44,515 bases of DNA from a virus. The stretch lies in UHGV virus genome UHGV-1858859, one strand, 5' to 3'. The position numbers and the translations under genes were made by a program. The notes under the pieces are model-generated. The model searched no databases. It had not been told where the DNA came from and worked only from the letters and a program-made list of their open reading frames with translations. Of this stretch, positions 6,703 to 12,916 are shown one piece after another; position 1 is the first letter of the stretch, and every line of letters begins with the position of its first letter.

Positions 6703-6842
6703 TCCACTCCACCCGTTATGATTTCAACAAATATCTGTATCTGAGAGTTTGCACTGTCGAGTTGCTGCCGTAGGCGTAGAACCTCTTCTTCAAGTTCCTT
6801 GATACGTTTTTGCAATGCAGGAATCGGGGCTATGATGTTCAT
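6699..6842 (-). CDS. small coiled-coil protein (47 aa)
   Basis: ATG overlaps the helicase stop (ATGA) and its own stop overlaps the HNH start (ATGA); below the ORF-track length cutoff. Confidence 0.3.
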   Translation of the reverse strand: MNIIAPIPALQKRIKELEEEVLRLRQQLDSANSQIQIFVEIITGGVE

Positions 6843-8269
6843 TTCTTACCTCGTCTCTTCATATAATTAAGTAGTTCGTCCTGTACAGACCTTTTCTCGT
6901 CCGTACGCGCTGCGACAACTTCATCTAGAGTATCTCGGGCTATTATTTGATAAATGAATACAGACCGTTTGTACCCAGACTGCATCTGCCTCACCGGACC
7001 TATGCGCTCGATAACCTGCAAATAGTGTTCCAGGTTCCACCCCTGACTCATAAAGGCCATGTGATGTCCGCCGTGTTGTAGCGACAGCCCGTGGCCCGCG
7101 GAGGCTGGATGTATCAGGAGCATAGGTATTTCCCCGCGGTTCCACGCTTCCATCTGCTTATTACCCTTAGCTCCTTTGGCGAACGCCTGTGCCTGCGGGA
7201 ATCGCTTAAGAATTCGCTCCAGTTCGTGCTTGAACTGATAGGCTACCAGTAACGGAGCACCCTGCAACTCCTCAACAATGGACTCGAGCGCATCCAGTTT
7301 CGTGTCGTGCACTTTCTCCCAGTCTTTCGTTGCTTCTCCGTCCGGTCCCGATACATACACGGCACCAGATGCAATCTGCAAACACTTCGACGTCTTCGCC
7401 GCGGCGTTAGCAGCTTCAACTTCTCCGCTCTCCAGTTCCGCGAATAACTTCTCCTCCATATCGATGTACGCCTGACGTGCTTTCTTCGGCAGGTCAATTT
7501 CAACCGGAACAATAATCGGCGCTTCACACCCGAACCACTCAGCGGCGTCAATCGTGAGACTAATGTCCTTCATCTTCTGGTGAATCTCATTATCCGCCCC
7601 CGGGCGCGCATGATACTCTCGCGCCATCGCCGACTTACCTTTCTGGACAGAGTTAAACCATCGGTCGGTGAATGCCGTGTATGAAGAACCGAGGCGCTCG
7701 CCAGCGTCGATAAACCAGTTCTGGCCCCACAGGTCTTTGAGGCCATTTGGTGATGGCGTACCGGTAAGGTTGATGAAACGCTTAACCTTACCGAATGCCA
7801 CTTTACTAAGCGCCTTTGCCCGCTTGCTGCCACCTGAACGGCTACGGAAAGATTTCAGTTTCGTGCTTTCATCGGCAACAATAACCGTAAAAGGCCAGTC
7901 GTCTTTGCCGTAGTAGTCAATCAGCCACTCGATAACTTCGTAGTTAGTGCACACCACGTTAGCATCTGACTCCAGCGCCGCGATGCGGCGCTTCTCTGAA
8001 CCGGTCGCATCTACGACGCGCAGACACGGGAATCCCCACTTAGTTTGTTCTGATGGCCATGTGCCGGACGCAACACGCAGCGGGGCGAGGATTAACACTC
8101 GGTCGTCATCATTAAGTTGGCCGTTGCGGAACAGTCGGTTAAGCACCCACATCGTTGCGGAACTTTTGCCCGCGCCCATCGAAGCCCAAATATTACAGCG
8201 CGGATGTTGCAACATGAACGAAGTCATGAGCTTCTGGTACTCCCTGCGGGTAAATTTAGACATAATCAA
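6839..8269 (-). CDS. SNF2/DEAD-like superfamily 2 helicase
   Basis: Walker A MGAGKSS, DExx-type motif VADESTKLK, motif III LTGTP, C-terminal helicase motif HPASAGHGLSLQ. Confidence 0.8.
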   Translation of the reverse strand: MIMSKFTRREYQKLMTSFMLQHPRCNIWASMGAGKSSATMWVLNRLFRNGQLNDDDRVLILAPLRVASGTWPSEQTKWGFPCLRVVDATGSEKRRIAALESDANVVCTNYEVIEWLIDYYGKDDWPFTVIVADESTKLKSFRSRSGGSKRAKALSKVAFGKVKRFINLTGTPSPNGLKDLWGQNWFIDAGERLGSSYTAFTDRWFNSVQKGKSAMAREYHARPGADNEIHQKMKDISLTIDAAEWFGCEAPIIVPVEIDLPKKARQAYIDMEEKLFAELESGEVEAANAAAKTSKCLQIASGAVYVSGPDGEATKDWEKVHDTKLDALESIVEELQGAPLLVAYQFKHELERILKRFPQAQAFAKGAKGNKQMEAWNRGEIPMLLIHPASAGHGLSLQHGGHHMAFMSQGWNLEHYLQVIERIGPVRQMQSGYKRSVFIYQIIARDTLDEVVAARTDEKRSVQDELLNYMKRRGKK

Positions 8270-8471: not shown

Positions 8472-8777
8472 TTATATTGTTGGTGTATGACTACTATAGT
8501 AGTTCGCTATTAGGTCGTCAACCTGTTTGAACGACCCGACGATAAAAACATTTGCACCACGTTTACGCATCCGCTCGTGCTCCCGTAGCTGGTGCGGGTC
8601 TGGCTTCGTGTTTTCGTCTTTCTTAACCTCGACAAACCAGACGATGCCGCCGGGGAGAATCACCAGCAGGTCGGGAGCGCCGGAACGTCCTTCGTAGGAA
8701 AGTTTACGAACGAGGCCGCCGAGGGCCTCGAATCGCTCTTTTGCATATTTCTGTATTTTGCCCTCAGGCGTACTCAT
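8472..8777 (-). CDS. VRR-NUC domain nuclease
   Basis: GAPDLLVILPGG ... VEVK pattern typical of VRR-NUC (PD-(D/E)XK fold). Confidence 0.65.
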   Translation of the reverse strand: MSTPEGKIQKYAKERFEALGGLVRKLSYEGRSGAPDLLVILPGGIVWFVEVKKDENTKPDPHQLREHERMRKRGANVFIVGSFKQVDDLIANYYSSHTPTI

Positions 8778-8858: not shown

Positions 8859-8990
8859 TCATTCCAGCACCCACAGATAAATCGCGATGAACATACCTAA
8901 TACGGCGACCATCATGCCGTATTGGCCCTCGTGACAGTAGACACCGGCGGCAAATCCCGCCAGTACCGCGATAATCAGTTTACTTGGCAT
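8859..8990 (-). CDS. small hydrophobic protein (43 aa)
   Basis: MPSKLIIAVLAGFAAGVYCHEGQYGMMVAVLGMFIAIYLWVLE; its ATG overlaps the polymerase stop codon. Confidence 0.3.
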   Translation of the reverse strand: MPSKLIIAVLAGFAAGVYCHEGQYGMMVAVLGMFIAIYLWVLE

Positions 8991-11900
8991 AACGCTTCAT
9001 CTCCGCACCTTCCGCGACAAGAGGGAAGCCTTCTGCCCACTCAGGCAACGCGCACATTAATTTTTCCAGCTCAGGCACCGTGTAATCCGGCGTATCTGGA
9101 GTTTCACATACCAGTTCATCGTGTACCGAAAGCACGATGGGATACCCGCCACCCTCAACATTAATCATCGCATATGCGAGTAAATCACGGCACAGCGCCT
9201 GAACAATGTTTTCGCAGGCTTTGCCGCCGTGTGTGTACAGGGTAGTCCATTGGCGGGTTAACTGGTTTTCACCTTGGTACTTGATTCGCACATTCGTGTT
9301 TACCCGTCCGTCTTCGTCTGTTTCTTTTGTCACGCTAACGCCGATTCCTGGATACGAGAGGATACGGCCCGACGGCAACTCCATACACAACCACCAACCG
9401 GGAACCTTCCTGCCGGATGAATCGAATTCTACCGTACGCCATATGCGGATAGCCCTTTCCCTGTTCCTGCGCAAGTGTGCTCCCGCCCAAAATTCACGAC
9501 CAGGATTGCGAACAGCGGCTAAAATTCCGTCTTTAAGGTCGCGCCAGAACGCTACTGTTTCCGGGTGTGACTCACGCCACATACGCTTGATTGCGTCACA
9601 GGTACGCCATACTTTCTTATCAAGAATGTACGATGGTCTGTCATCCTTTTCACCAGGATGCGGTGGTCGCTTGGCTTCCTGAATACGCGCCCATTCATAA
9701 CCACGTGCAGTAGCCGCCCATATATGATCAGGGAAAGTACCGTCCATTGTTTTTGCCATCTCGATAAGGTCAAGACCTAAGTTTTTGGCGAACGTAACGA
9801 ACGCTCCGACGCCGCCCTCGTAGCCGAGACCGAGCTCGCAGTTATGCGCCACAAGAAAGCCAGAGTCGGAAGCTATGAGAAAACGGTTGCCGTCGTCCAC
9901 ATCAATCAGGTCGTAAACCGGCTCGCAGTAGGTTAATTTCCCGTTCAAGCTCAGCAATGCGGGCAACGGCAGCATCGTACTTTCGTTGAAGCTCAGGTAT
10001 CCGCCGTCTGTTACGGCAGTTTTCCGAACGGCTGACAAACCGAATGTTTCCAGGCTCGTAGTTACCGTCTGTGTCGATTCTGTCCATTTCGAGGTTTGGG
10101 TCATCCCAGCCTTCCAGAGTTTGAACATATCTAAGAAACGACCTTTTATCGGTCCTCCACTGGTCACACACCGTGATACCCCTTGCCCCATAGTTTTTAT
10201 AACCCTTATCTCTGGGGCTTGTTGTTCGCACGATTGCCGCCGACAACCGGTTGAGCAATCGCGTTCTGTGCGCGTCATCTGGCATTGCGTCTTCGTAGCA
10301 GAAATATTGTTTACGATATCTTTTTGTCGCTTCAAGCGCGCAGCGGTTGCATTGAGTGGTTTTACCCGCTCTGACATTGTCATAATAGACCCGCCCTGGC
10401 ATCTCCCCACAATCACATTGGGCGAGTAGTTGTCTTTGGCCTTGTCGTTTAGATAGCTCACGTAGGATAACCAGGCGACCCCACCTCTCCCCAGGGCGAG
10501 GCCCATCATATATTTGTTTGAAACGAGTTGCTTTGCCGCCTTCCAGGAATGCGTCAAGATTTTGTGGTCTTCGGTCATTAGAACCCCGTCCACATTTATC
10601 ACTGGTTTCCACCCCATAAGGTGCGCGCCTTTTGTATTCACCCATTTTTCGCCACTCCATACTTTATCTGTTGGTGTAACCGCCATAATATCCTTAAATC
10701 CGCCATCGGTCAAAACTTGGGTATGACGGTGAAGGCAAGCCTTACCTATCTGGCGTAAGTCTTTACGTTCTTTCTTAATATCGTCGGGGTCCATGCCAAA
10801 CATCTTGCCCGCGGTTACACAGTAAATATCCAGTCCGGCGCGGAACGTATCGAGCGCGGTTTCTTCACCTGCCAGCCAAGCAAGCCCGCGGCCTTCAACG
10901 TTAGAGTAATCGGCGACGACAAACTTACGCCCGGCTTCCGGTATTATGCAGCTACGCACAGTAGATGCCGTTAGTTTGGCTACATCAAAACGGCGATGGG
11001 CGCGGCCCTTAAGTAACGCCGAAATGCCTTTATCCAGCTCATAATCGTGATAGTAACCGCGTGCCAGGTTCTGCGGCTGGAAGCCTTTACCTGCCCATCG
11101 CAGAGTACGTTTTGCCCCACCGTACTGCAAGCAACCGCGACGGCGGTCGTCCGAAGAGCGGCCCAGCAGCAGCGGGTTATATTTCGTTGACGCGGTGGAC
11201 GCGGCCCCGAGGCGCATTTCGATAATTGTGCGTGCGTCGTCCGGTAAATCATCGTCCGCAAGCAAGTCATTCAGTGTCGACTTCTGCGCGTTGTGAATAC
11301 GGTGTGCAGGCGCAAGTTCACGCAGAATCGGAAGAAAGTCCTTACCAGTAAGCGAGCCGCCGTATTTGCGTTGGGCTTCCTCCTGTAACTGCGCTTTGTG
11401 TTTCTCCACGGCTTCAATAGCGGCTTCCGCCAGTGCAACGTCAACCTTAAACCCGCGGTCGTTGATTAACTGGTCCAGCTCCAGTACACGGTCTTCGAAC
11501 TCAGAGTTACCCCAACGCGGCAGCTTATGGAAGACTTCACGCATCGCAGTGATGTCGCTCACGGCGTACTTGATGAACAGCGCCCACTCGTCCGGGTGTG
11601 TTTCTGCGGTGTAGCGGCGGATTTTGTAATTCTTCGGTGTCGGTTTAGAGAAACGCTGAATCAGCGCCTTGCCGCGTTTATCTTTTGCGTTGTCTGCTGA
11701 CACGCCCAGCACTTCGCACAACGCATCGAGGGAACCCGGCAGCGCGTGACGAAACGCCCAAATCATCGTATCAATGGTGTTGCCTACAGGAATATCAAAG
11801 TCCCAGCAGTGTTTCATGATGAGCCTATCGAACATTGAGCCGTTGTGCCATACCATCTTAATACGACTGTTCGGCTTAACCAGGCGGCGCAGTGCGCGGT

Positions 11901-12078
11901 GCAAATCACCCGGCATGTCGCTGCCGTCGGTGCAATCCCATACCCGCACAGGCTCGTCGTCAAAAGCATATGTGCAGATAAGCACTTCGGTAGTCGGGTG
12001 TTCGGCGTAAGCGTAGGAGCCGACTTTCTTCAAATCGGCTTCGGAGAATGTTTCAAAGTCCAGGTATAAGTAGCTCAT
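8980..12078 (-). CDS. family A DNA polymerase (3'-5' exonuclease + polymerase) interrupted by an in-frame intein
   Basis: Exo I motif LDFETFS near the N-terminus, motif A DYSNVEGRGLAWLAGE, motif B split as RQIGKA / CELGLGYEGG around the intein, motif C LSVHDELV. Start set at ATG 12078 (MSYLYLDFETF) with an AAGGA RBS rather than the track start at 12132. Confidence 0.85.
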   Translation of the reverse strand: MSYLYLDFETFSEADLKKVGSYAYAEHPTTEVLICTYAFDDEPVRVWDCTDGSDMPGDLHRALRRLVKPNSRIKMVWHNGSMFDRLIMKHCWDFDIPVGNTIDTMIWAFRHALPGSLDALCEVLGVSADNAKDKRGKALIQRFSKPTPKNYKIRRYTAETHPDEWALFIKYAVSDITAMREVFHKLPRWGNSEFEDRVLELDQLINDRGFKVDVALAEAAIEAVEKHKAQLQEEAQRKYGGSLTGKDFLPILRELAPAHRIHNAQKSTLNDLLADDDLPDDARTIIEMRLGAASTASTKYNPLLLGRSSDDRRRGCLQYGGAKRTLRWAGKGFQPQNLARGYYHDYELDKGISALLKGRAHRRFDVAKLTASTVRSCIIPEAGRKFVVADYSNVEGRGLAWLAGEETALDTFRAGLDIYCVTAGKMFGMDPDDIKKERKDLRQIGKACLHRHTQVLTDGGFKDIMAVTPTDKVWSGEKWVNTKGAHLMGWKPVINVDGVLMTEDHKILTHSWKAAKQLVSNKYMMGLALGRGGVAWLSYVSYLNDKAKDNYSPNVIVGRCQGGSIMTMSERVKPLNATAARLKRQKDIVNNISATKTQCQMTRTERDCSTGCRRQSCEQQAPEIRVIKTMGQGVSRCVTSGGPIKGRFLDMFKLWKAGMTQTSKWTESTQTVTTSLETFGLSAVRKTAVTDGGYLSFNESTMLPLPALLSLNGKLTYCEPVYDLIDVDDGNRFLIASDSGFLVAHNCELGLGYEGGVGAFVTFAKNLGLDLIEMAKTMDGTFPDHIWAATARGYEWARIQEAKRPPHPGEKDDRPSYILDKKVWRTCDAIKRMWRESHPETVAFWRDLKDGILAAVRNPGREFWAGAHLRRNRERAIRIWRTVEFDSSGRKVPGWWLCMELPSGRILSYPGIGVSVTKETDEDGRVNTNVRIKYQGENQLTRQWTTLYTHGGKACENIVQALCRDLLAYAMINVEGGGYPIVLSVHDELVCETPDTPDYTVPELEKLMCALPEWAEGFPLVAEGAEMKRYAK
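9841..10737 (-). mobile_element. intein (299 codons) inserted in DNA polymerase motif B
   Basis: Block A CLHRHTQVLTDGG right after motif B Lys-Ala; block B GVLMTEDHKILT; blocks F/G VYDLIDVDDGNRFLIASDSGFLVAHN followed by Cys +1. Removing it restores RQIGKACELGLGYEGG. Confidence 0.7.
9902..10660 (-). CDS. HNH endonuclease encoded inside the intein in a different reading frame
   Basis: 252-codon ORF in another frame of the same strand; contains KGYKNYGARGITVCDQW ... EMDRIDTDGNYEPGNIRFVSRSEN, resembling free-standing phage HNH endonucleases. True start uncertain. Confidence 0.6.
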   Translation of the reverse strand: MEWRKMGEYKRRAPYGVETSDKCGRGSNDRRPQNLDAFLEGGKATRFKQIYDGPRPGERWGRLVILRELSKRQGQRQLLAQCDCGEMPGRVYYDNVRAGKTTQCNRCALEATKRYRKQYFCYEDAMPDDAHRTRLLNRLSAAIVRTTSPRDKGYKNYGARGITVCDQWRTDKRSFLRYVQTLEGWDDPNLEMDRIDTDGNYEPGNIRFVSRSENCRNRRRIPELQRKYDAAVARIAELEREINLLRAGLRPD

Positions 12079-12230
12079 TTCTTTTTCCTTAAATCCAGTG
12101 CCTTCGTTTCGCTGAGTCTTATTTTCATACAATCACGACAAATCCACACATGCCTGTACCCGGCGCGGTACTCATCCGCGTACCACGGAAGCGGTTTCAT
12201 ATATCGGTATACGTGCTTACAGAAAAACAT
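12075..12230 (-). CDS. small Cys-containing protein (51 aa)
   Basis: MFFCKHVYRYMKPLPWYADEYRAGYRHVWICRDCMKI...; stop overlaps the polymerase ATG (ATGA); below track cutoff. Confidence 0.3.
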   Translation of the reverse strand: MFFCKHVYRYMKPLPWYADEYRAGYRHVWICRDCMKIRLSETKALDLRKKK

Positions 12231-12289: not shown

Positions 12290-12916
12290 TTAACGGCGGC
12301 GACGTTCGCGGCGCGGTGCTTCATCTTCTTCGTCGTCTTCCAGGTCATTGACGCTTGCGGCGACTTTAGAACCACCAAACGCTTTACCTTCGCCAACATA
12401 TTTAATTGCCAGCAGGTTAACGCCTAGAACTTTATATTTCTGGCTGAACCAGATTTCAACGCTTACATTAGCTACGCAGCCACTGTAAACCTGTTCACCT
12501 TCAATCTGTTCGCCGTCTACGTTGAAGTCCTGCTCTACCTGAGTCTCACCTTTTTTAGATGTTACAATCAGTGGCTGTTTCTGTGCCTTAGCTTTGAAGT
12601 AGAAGCCTTCCGGGAAGTCTTCAAACGGATTGTCGCGTTCAGCAATATCTTTAATTGCACATTTATCCATGTGCTTACCTTCGCCGTAGTTGGACTTCAT
12701 CCACTTCTCGGCAGCGGCTGCGCCTAACGCTTCTTCAACTACAGCGTAGACAGTGTCGTAGAGCGCGTCGATTTGCGCGTGGTCAGACGGCAGGATTATA
12801 GTCGCGCTGTACTGGCCTTTAGTGGTGGAGCCATCATCGTTTTCACGGTCTTTTTCGCGTTCGAATACGTTAACCCAGGCAGTGTTTACTTTACGCAGAT
12901 TCAGCTTAATACCCAT
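12290..12916 (-). CDS. ssDNA-binding-like protein with acidic C-terminal tail
   Basis: 208 aa ending in DLEDDEEDE...RRERRRR; sits between a Cas4-like nuclease and the polymerase, as in a conserved phage replication cassette; own promoter upstream. Confidence 0.5.
   Translation of the reverse strand: MGIKLNLRKVNTAWVNVFEREKDRENDDGSTTKGQYSATIILPSDHAQIDALYDTVYAVVEEALGAAAAEKWMKSNYGEGKHMDKCAIKDIAERDNPFEDFPEGFYFKAKAQKQPLIVTSKKGETQVEQDFNVDGEQIEGEQVYSGCVANVSVEIWFSQKYKVLGVNLLAIKYVGEGKAFGGSKVAASVNDLEDDEEDEAPRRERRRR

Follow-up and report, generated by a model that had tools for sequence, protein, structure and literature searches.

The 44,515-nt virus genome UHGV-1858859 (the window, by which we mean the whole stretch of DNA analyzed) carries, inside the gene for its family-A DNA polymerase, an 897-nt insertion that is probably a composite mobile element, in which an intein and a separate nested nuclease gene occupy the same DNA in two reading frames and act jointly through splicing, nuclease activity and homing. 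The evidence consists of the anatomy of the element, two frames that are both conserved, purifying selection specific to each frame, the folds predicted for the two proteins, the existence of empty alleles, and an intein identity in excess of that of the host gene; from these we infer splicing, the start of translation of the nested gene, its nuclease activity and the homing of the element. In the mechanism that we propose, the polymerase frame would encode a class-1 mini-intein whose splicing domain is made of the first ~73 and the last ~42 residues, and the ~180 residues between these parts would be a read-through of the nuclease gene, with the avoidance of stop codons as their only constraint. 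Once translated, the intein would excise itself and the two halves of motif B (the O-helix) would be joined again, so that the polymerase would be active. Frame 3 (+2) would yield a protein of 247 residues, whose family is mostly encoded by free-standing phage 'HNH' homing-endonuclease genes. If it behaves as homing endonucleases do, this protein may cut intein-less polymerase alleles of co-infecting phages, and the 897-nt unit would spread as a whole when the cut is repaired from the intein-bearing copy. The intein would render the insertion harmless and the nuclease would render it mobile.

An intein interrupts motif B of the polymerase

The polymerase open reading frame (ORF), the intein and the nested ORF all lie on the minus strand, which the initial annotation of this DNA, made by a model from the letters alone, had not stated. 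That annotation had described a polymerase frame that stays open through a 299-codon insertion in motif B; both the ORF and the insertion were recovered, and the intein boundaries proved to be exactly those proposed (Table 1). The polymerase ORF matches Pfam DNA_pol_A (E=2.8e-15), and its homologues are annotated as DNA polymerase or as intein-containing DNA polymerase precursor. As had been noted from the sequence, the intein begins with Cys (CLHRHTQVLTDGG), holds TEDHKIL and terminates with ...GFLVAHN ahead of Cys+1, a residue also found in intein-less alleles. The splicing residues of the window intein are C1, T55-E-D-H58 and H298-N299, followed by C+1. Among nine diverse relatives C1, T55, D57, H58 and the terminal Asn are invariant, as are Y110 and D111 of the C-terminal region. 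The insertion interrupts this conserved polymerase motif in the ~163 GenBank phage records in which the element was found. GenBank already annotates an intein in the phages vB_SenS-Ent1, -Ent2 and -Ent3, and the mat_peptide 'intein' of vB_SenS-Ent2 is the homologous 897 nt.

Profile support for the intein depended on the query. With the single intein-frame sequence, neither an intein nor a Hint match was obtained in Pfam or NCBIfam, and a PDB sequence search gave no match; a nine-member profile of the splicing domain, on the other hand, matched the solved inteins Neq Pol, Mtu RecA and Spl DnaX (E=5e-5 to 1e-3), the Spl DnaX match spanning the full length. AlphaFold modeled residues 1-70 of the intein frame with a predicted local distance difference test score (pLDDT) of ~90 and residues 260-299 with ~80, both as confident beta structure. 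The stretch between them, described initially as a low-information linker, scored <50 at residues 74-130 and 148-251 and 59-69 at 131-147. The 26 top Foldseek matches of this model in the PDB were all inteins or bacterial intein-like Hint domains, with a probability of up to 0.99 and E-values of merely 0.08-5 owing to the short alignments. Together, the anatomy and the predicted Hint fold support the assignment of the insert as a class-1 intein, presumably active in splicing.

The polymerase frame is continuous through the insert, with no stop in the 897 nt of the window or of 14 other alleles. A fractured gene with a split intein was rejected on this unbroken frame. Two truncated polymerase fragments, considered as candidates for natural split-intein intermediates, were also rejected: one (P0139) is a degraded remnant adjoining hicAB, and the other (P0153) derives from a contig of 0.8x coverage. 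The former belongs to a locus (L032, 4001-5136) at which a truncated polymerase with an N-terminal intein piece adjoins a hicA/hicB toxin-antitoxin pair, and which is probably a degraded prophage remnant.

The 299-aa intein frame retrieved only five proteins from a large protein database, probably because gene callers often break the precursor; the splicing-domain profile did better. At one metagenomic locus (L031, 1012-3458) the gene caller had retained the ORF of the nested nuclease, whereas the surrounding polymerase precursor was lost or broken into pieces, although assembly gaps (runs of X) break the polymerase frame there, and overlap alone is not the cause of the fragmentation.

A second gene is nested in the intein in another frame

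The second open frame proposed initially (9902-10660, 252 codons) was found on the same strand at +2 relative to the polymerase frame, and this is the longest form of the nested ORF (252 aa plus stop). In many Jerseyviruses the first ATG is followed by a TGA four codons on, which leaves the second ATG (10645) as the conserved start of the nested gene. The ORF begins within the N-terminal splicing domain (intein aa 31) and finishes within the C-terminal splicing region. Across the 897 nt the three sense frames contain 0 (intein), 30 and 4 (nested frame) stops, none of the last four lying between the nested ATG and its own terminal stop, and the antisense frames contain 10, 7 and 14. The earlier argument that two such open frames are unlikely to arise by chance held when it was quantified: given the nested protein sequence and the codon usage of the window, a stop-free polymerase frame is expected with P=0.0022, and the equivalent frame of two free-standing homologues carries 13 and 18 stops. 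Both frames are also conserved. All 15 distinct alleles, which come from Guernseyvirinae and from Dhillonvirus phages (EP23, SO-1, Pubbukkers), are 897 nt long, and in each of them the intein frame is uninterrupted and the nested frame stays open from the second ATG.

Each frame is under purifying selection where its own protein is structured

Of the variable sites in the core of the nested gene, 18, 86 and 40 fall at intein-frame codon positions 1, 2 and 3 (equal to nested positions 2, 3 and 1); 86 of the 168 intein-frame second codon positions in the linker are variable. Outside the nested ORF, the intein has zero variable second positions, and third positions dominate. Ratios of nonsynonymous to synonymous substitution rates (dN/dS) were estimated by the method of Nei and Gojobori (NG86) for the window against five alleles. 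In the nested-gene core dN/dS was 0.08-0.14 in the nested frame, versus 0.8-2.3 in the intein frame. At the splicing ends the intein-frame ratio was 0.05-0.12: intein aa 258-299 gave 0.05-0.09 in all five comparisons, and aa 1-30 gave 0.06-0.12 in four of five, the comparison with SE2 giving 1.1 with too few substitutions to estimate. Where the N-terminal splicing domain and the N-terminus of the nested protein overlap (~50 codons), dN/dS was ~0.3 in both frames and dS was reduced to ~0.3 in the two Dhillonvirus comparisons; the three closer comparisons gave 0.12-0.48, again from too few substitutions. Synonymous divergence between Guernseyvirinae and Dhillonvirus copies reaches a dS of ~1. 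The element is therefore partitioned, each frame being constrained where its own protein is structured and elsewhere merely kept open.

The two-frame layout recurs in distant phages with conserved translation signals

The PolA motif-B inteins of more than ten relatives, from Pseudomonas, Vibrio and Streptococcus phages and from metagenomes, likewise hold a homologue of the nested protein (31-49% identity) in a frame differing from that of the polymerase (L and P numbers are our own handles). The +2 arrangement occurs in L022, Pseudomonas phage MR14, L023, L030, L031 and Vibrio phage 97.13, and a +1 arrangement in L024 (2742-3725), L026 (2538-3467), L027 (2021-2950) and Streptococcus phage Javan255 (L036). 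The +1 sister group implies either independent captures or frame switching. Comparison of the window intein with L023, L026, L030, L031, L036 and L037 gave two insertion points four residues apart in motif B, one between GKx and C and the other between GKxxxxx and (C/S)G. The intein of Vibrio phage 97.13 has Ser instead of Cys at +1, and that of L024 ends in Ser-Asn instead of His-Asn. Closely related splicing domains (CIAEGQ/CIAHGQ ... VWDGxxWV ... TPDH) were also seen in helicase C-terminal domains (PF00271; P0137, P0140 and P0171), so this one lineage of inteins has moved between genes for polymerases and genes for helicases.

In all +2 elements an ATG or GTG stands at intein nt 92, made by the (E/K)-W codons of W(D/S)GExWV, and in every +2 relative this conserved start is preceded by a purine-rich GGAG, GGGA or GAGGAG supplied by codons of the same motif; in the window the GGAG lies 9 nt upstream. 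The +1 elements carry a perfect AAGGAG six nt before an ATG at intein nt 133. The initial annotation had suggested that the endonuclease is possibly translated independently; on these sequence signals that is plausible, and the nested gene is most likely translated on its own from the ATG at 10645 inside the polymerase mRNA.

A sigma-70-like promoter match (TTGACC-17-TATTAT) overlies the block A codons of the window, 39 nt upstream of the nested start. It recurs in the same register, with 9-11 of 12 positions, in EP23, L022, MR14, L030 and Vibrio phage 97.13 (TTGACA-17-TATAGT), is absent from L023, L031 and the +1 elements, and in the window mostly follows from the encoded protein sequence (P=0.24). 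It is possible, although we think it rather doubtful, that the splicing-domain codons themselves carry the expression signals of the nuclease, with W-(D/S)-G-E-x-W-V serving as Shine-Dalgarno (SD) sequence and start in the -1 frame and block A (V-L-T-D ... I-M/V) as a sigma-70 promoter TTGAC(N)-17-TATNNT. The 897-nt unit might then be a self-contained homing cassette, transcribed and translated autonomously. In that case its long-lived lineage, which is found in Proteobacteria phages as well as Firmicutes phages, with either alternative frame in use and with two motif B sites, could be a living intermediate in the origin of canonical inteins under a 'splicing first, endonuclease captured later' scenario.

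Empty alleles and excess intein identity suggest homing

The polymerases of RP180 (Kagunavirus) and CKT1 (Jerseyvirus), each of 734 aa, read RQIGKACELGLGYEGG uninterrupted, which gives the clean insertion point for which the initial annotation had proposed to look in related phages. These intein-less alleles lack exactly the 897 nt, the empty site reading ...AGACAGATAGGTAAGGCATGCGAACTGGGCCTC..., and 468 records match across the empty junction. Relative to Jerseyviruses the window intein is 93-94.5% identical and the flanking exteins 77% (N) and 85-88% (C); relative to Dhillonviruses the intein is 83% identical and the exteins 65-70%. Presence and absence of the intein are sporadic within each of Jerseyvirus, Kagunavirus and Dhillonvirus. 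An intein more alike than its exteins, patchily distributed, is the pattern that homing predicts, and the excess identity over the host gene suggests homing here. Most metagenomic homologues of the nested protein lie on contigs of only 0.85-1.3 kb, about as long as the element itself; at the intein boundaries the assemblies may break up, owing to presence/absence polymorphism or to sharing of the element among phages.

The nested protein belongs to a family of free-standing phage genes

The nested protein has 1175 database homologues. The HNH-type label given to it initially draws its support from matches to PHROG HNH-endonuclease families (phrog_374, E=8.5e-46; phrog_3377, E=2.3e-23; phrog_2081, E=3.2e-23); Pfam and NCBIfam gave no match with the window's nested frame, nor did a PDB sequence search with the protein. 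AlphaFold predicted a fold with a mean pLDDT of 82.5 (residues 1-25 <50), comprising a disordered N-terminal extension, a Zn-ribbon/barrel domain whose CxC...CxxC is invariant, a helical region, a putative beta-beta-alpha unit and a long C-terminal helix. The putative beta-beta-alpha unit holds the motif D188-R189-I-D ... N200 ... N209, with the Asn positions conserved and R189 standing where the catalytic His is expected. We therefore file the protein as HNH-like and not as a verified HNH nuclease. Free-standing members of the family include L025, L028 and many Staphylococcus, Enterococcus, Vibrio and Mycobacterium phage genes, and these free-standing homologues align solely from nested residue ~52 onward.

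Alternative explanations

Several points weigh against a composite of intein and homing nuclease. Splicing, translation of the nested frame and cleavage are steps that we infer. Arg in DRID, a motif already quoted in the initial annotation, is invariant in 51 of 51 aligned members at the position expected for the catalytic His. HNH_3-type motifs have D-H there, the His acting as general base; catalysis by the nested protein, if any, would therefore be non-canonical. The Pfam HNH models matched neither the window's nested protein nor any of 50 relatives. The GGAG of the window is short, with a spacing at the long end of the usual range, and the higher identity of the intein could come partly from dual-coding constraint and not from recent transfer.

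The invariant Arg and the missing Pfam match would both suit a nested protein that is functional without being a homing nuclease, for example a DNA-binding regulator or an exclusion factor residing in the intein by chance, like the domesticated endonuclease CapR, in which case the intein would persist mainly by vertical descent. In the same direction, the N-terminal domain of nine of 51 relatives matches the Pfam CapR homology domain, a domain common to putative phage homing endonucleases, and CapR itself is a nuclease-derived repressor (PMC8096241); the strong purifying selection on the nested frame shows that it has a function, not which one. We nevertheless consider this explanation unlikely, given the sporadic presence of the intein within three genera and an intein identity (83-94%) well above that of the exteins (65-88%). 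A passenger without a part in mobility would also explain poorly why this nuclease family is repeatedly paired with PolA motif-B inteins in independent lineages, two frames and two sites, and the free-standing family members are scattered in phage genomes in the way of homing-endonuclease genes.

Could the nested ORF instead be a decaying, untranslated relic of an endonuclease, open only since the element is young? The homing-cycle model predicts decay of the endonuclease after fixation, and the relatives offer examples that fit: L023 (2995-3762) has an in-frame stop in the nested core (...HKQW*EDR...) with its intein and polymerase frame still open, which looks like endonuclease decay in progress, and mini-intein relatives without a nuclease insert exist (e.g., P0128). 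For the window element this is improbable, as the low nested-frame dN/dS holds across a divergence of up to dS ~1 between Guernseyvirinae and Dhillonvirus, the nested ORF is intact from its conserved start in 15 of 15 alleles and in relatives of 32-49% identity, and the nested start codons and SD sequences are conserved.

More improbable still is that the nuclease is made as a fusion of N-extein, N-terminal intein part and nuclease by programmed -1 frameshifting. The nested frame is indeed -1 (+2) relative to the polymerase frame, and an A-rich run, GAAAAAT, directly precedes the nested start in the window; read in the polymerase frame, however, this run does not make a canonical X XXY YYZ heptamer, it is missing in relatives such as L022, L023 and L030, the +1 relatives would need the opposite shift and carry their perfect AAGGAG-N6-ATG, and in several alleles stops lie directly upstream of the nested ATG in the nested frame. 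A conserved start with an SD-like sequence and no conserved slippery site favors internal initiation over frameshifting.

That the layout is an artefact or misassignment, either an in-frame HNH intein with compensating indels or a group I intron with an ORF, is almost certainly wrong even though Sodalis phage SO-1 gp38 and gp39 are annotated 'type I self-splicing intron' and SS3e is annotated polymerase / HNH / polymerase, because the 897-nt length and both open frames recur across independently sequenced genomes, no Rfam family (introns included) matches 9500-11100 on either strand at E<=1, and the uninterrupted polymerase frame has intein blocks and Hint-fold support. The absence of an Rfam match contradicts the SO-1 annotation, in which the label covers the nested ORF and the host gene (gp38/gp39, 1578-2336). 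A sequencing artefact was ruled out by the recurring length and frames, and a group I intron by the Rfam search. The sole length variant is the element of SS3e (NC_006940.2, 1819-2717) with 899 nt; compared with SE2 it has a single mismatch and, at short runs of G and C, two insertions of one base each, and these two insertions account for its division into three ORFs in the public annotation. The proposal that a splicing domain carries a frame-shifted endonuclease thus came through at each point where it stood to fail: length and frames spoke against compensating indels, the splicing-domain profile, unlike the single sequence, recovered inteins, and the intein-less relatives join the two halves of motif B.

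Deposited annotation of the element is inconsistent in general: some records mark the intein, and most give a plain DNA polymerase or a hypothetical protein. Some name the whole precursor 'endonuclease' or 'ssDNA-binding protein'.

Relation to known systems

An intein joined to an out-of-frame nuclease gene has a close precedent. Gosselin, Arsenault & Gogarten (bioRxiv 10.1101/2025.01.02.630785) described, as forms not reported before, inteins of actinophages that carry an endonuclease VII-like gene in frame 3, and antisense LAGLIDADG or VSR genes, and proposed that a free-standing endonuclease gene invaded an intein. As in those inteins, the window element has its splicing domain in the extein frame and, on the same strand, an endonuclease ORF in frame 3; read in the intein frame, the endonuclease region has no recognizable structure; the nuclease is kin to free-standing phage genes; and there are signs of ongoing horizontal spread. 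It differs in its host, a family-A polymerase of phages of Proteobacteria and Firmicutes, and in its nuclease, which belongs to the phrog_374 'HNH' family with a CapR-like Zn domain instead of being endonuclease VII-like. Moreover, its nested ORF starts and ends inside the splicing regions, whereas the ORFs of the preprint typically lie outside the splicing domain; its sister lineages use the other alternative frame (+1); and conserved SD and start signals are recognizable. The architecture was thus reported earlier, in the 2025 preprint, and the window element adds to it a widespread lineage with a different nuclease and both frames; the nuclease with a non-canonical active-site residue, the ORF within the splicing domain, the use of both frames and the translation signals are specific to it. 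Our literature searches found no paper on the two-frame relationship in these phages, those for Jersey-like inteins giving generic mentions only.

The out-of-frame 'hidden HNH' of a mycobacteriophage DNA methylase, the ShiLan domain (Arsenault et al., Genes 2025, PMC11855218), is likewise an insertion that is open in the host frame, whose real product is HNH-type in another frame, and which would form a disordered loop, by prediction, when read in the host frame. No splicing domain is detectable in ShiLan, which presumably stays in the mature methylase as a loop, whereas the complete intein blocks and Hint-fold support of the window element lead us to expect its removal from the polymerase. 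ShiLan also has no detectable ribosome-binding site, a leaderless GTG being proposed, in contrast to the SD-like sequence before the ATG of the window. Fractured genes, in which a free-standing homing-endonuclease gene separates the two halves of a split intein (Dassa et al., NAR 2009, PMC2677866), share with the window element a separately translated endonuclease of free-standing type and the model of a gene invading an intein; there, however, host and intein are split in two ORFs that rely on trans-splicing, whereas the window element is a contiguous, stop-free read-through that would splice in cis. Canonical HNH inteins, for which the 2025 preprint cites Dalgaard et al. 1997, resemble it in holding an HNH-superfamily nuclease at the usual insertion point between blocks B and F, and differ in that their nuclease is part of the same polypeptide and not, as in the window, a separate +2-frame polypeptide.

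A division of labor of this kind is reportedly also seen in collaborative homing, where a group I intron is served by a neighboring free-standing endonuclease gene, and in mobE, which is said to be embedded in nrdA of phage Aeh1. As in these cases, the splicing element would make the insertion harmless and a separate nuclease would provide mobility, the endonuclease gene lying in an essential phage gene; those systems involve splicing at the RNA level or a split host gene with adjacent components, and in the window the components overlap in two frames.

Inteins with a separately translated, out-of-frame endonuclease would on this evidence reach beyond actinophages to the polymerases of common Salmonella, E. 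coli, Pseudomonas, Vibrio and Streptococcus phages, in an old lineage that is widespread there. The element offers a tractable E. coli/Salmonella system for studying hidden-gene expression, the cooperation of intein and nuclease, and the origin of canonical inteins. It is also a clear case of overlapping genes with partitioned constraint, in which gene callers often choose one frame and break the other, and it is relevant to the engineering of these therapeutic-candidate phages or their polymerases.

Genomic setting and features

Table 1. Coordinates of the polymerase gene, the intein, the nested gene and their parts in the window.
Feature	Position	Strand	Remarks
Family-A DNA polymerase precursor ORF	8980-12132	minus	1050 codons from TTG
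Intein	9841-10737	minus	897 nt, 299 aa; in polymerase motif B between RQIGKA and CELGLGYEGG
N-terminal splicing region, aa 1-73, blocks A and B (C1, T55-x-x-H58)	10519-10737	minus	pLDDT ~90, invariant residues, profile matches
'Shadow' linker, intein aa 74-251	9985-10518	minus	Polymerase-frame read-through of nested gene; predicted unstructured
C-terminal splicing region, aa 258-299, blocks F and G (...VYDL...VAHN)	9841-9966	minus	pLDDT ~80, beta strands
Cys+1 codon, first C-extein residue	9838-9840	minus	TGC directly after the ...CATAAC junction
Nested HNH-family endonuclease gene	9902-10645	minus	247 codons plus stop; +2 versus polymerase frame
SD-like GGAG in VWSGEKWV codons, 9 nt upstream of ATG 10645	10655-10658	minus	
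Sigma-70-like promoter match TTGACC-17-TATTAT, block A codons, 39 nt upstream of nested start	10685-10713	minus	Lead only
Putative Zn-ribbon/beta-barrel DNA-binding domain, nested aa ~50-105 (CxC...CxxC)	10331-10498	minus	
Putative beta-beta-alpha (HNH-like) core, nested aa ~183-214 (LEMDRIDTDGNYEPGNIRFVSRSENCRN)	10004-10099	minus	

The window comes from a Guernseyvirinae (Kagunavirus/Jersey-like) siphophage. Its closest DNA matches are the Escherichia phages fEg-Eco19 and fPoEco01 (93%), followed by many Jerseyviruses (85%). Homologues align to the polymerase ORF only from query nt 54 or 78, and the vB_SenS-Ent2 record annotates a 1032-codon precursor; on these grounds the ATG at 12078 (MSYLYLDFETF...) is more likely to be the true polymerase start than the upstream TTG. 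A tblastn search with the window's intein and nested protein as queries recovered no further copy of the one or the other within the window. The polymerase is placed within a typical replication module. On the same strand, 6839-8269 is a putative SNF2-type helicase ORF and 8472-8777 a small VRR-NUC-type nuclease-like ORF, both labels having been read from the translations and not from profile matches, and 12290-12916 is a homologue of an ORF annotated as a single-stranded-DNA-binding/annealing protein in related phages.

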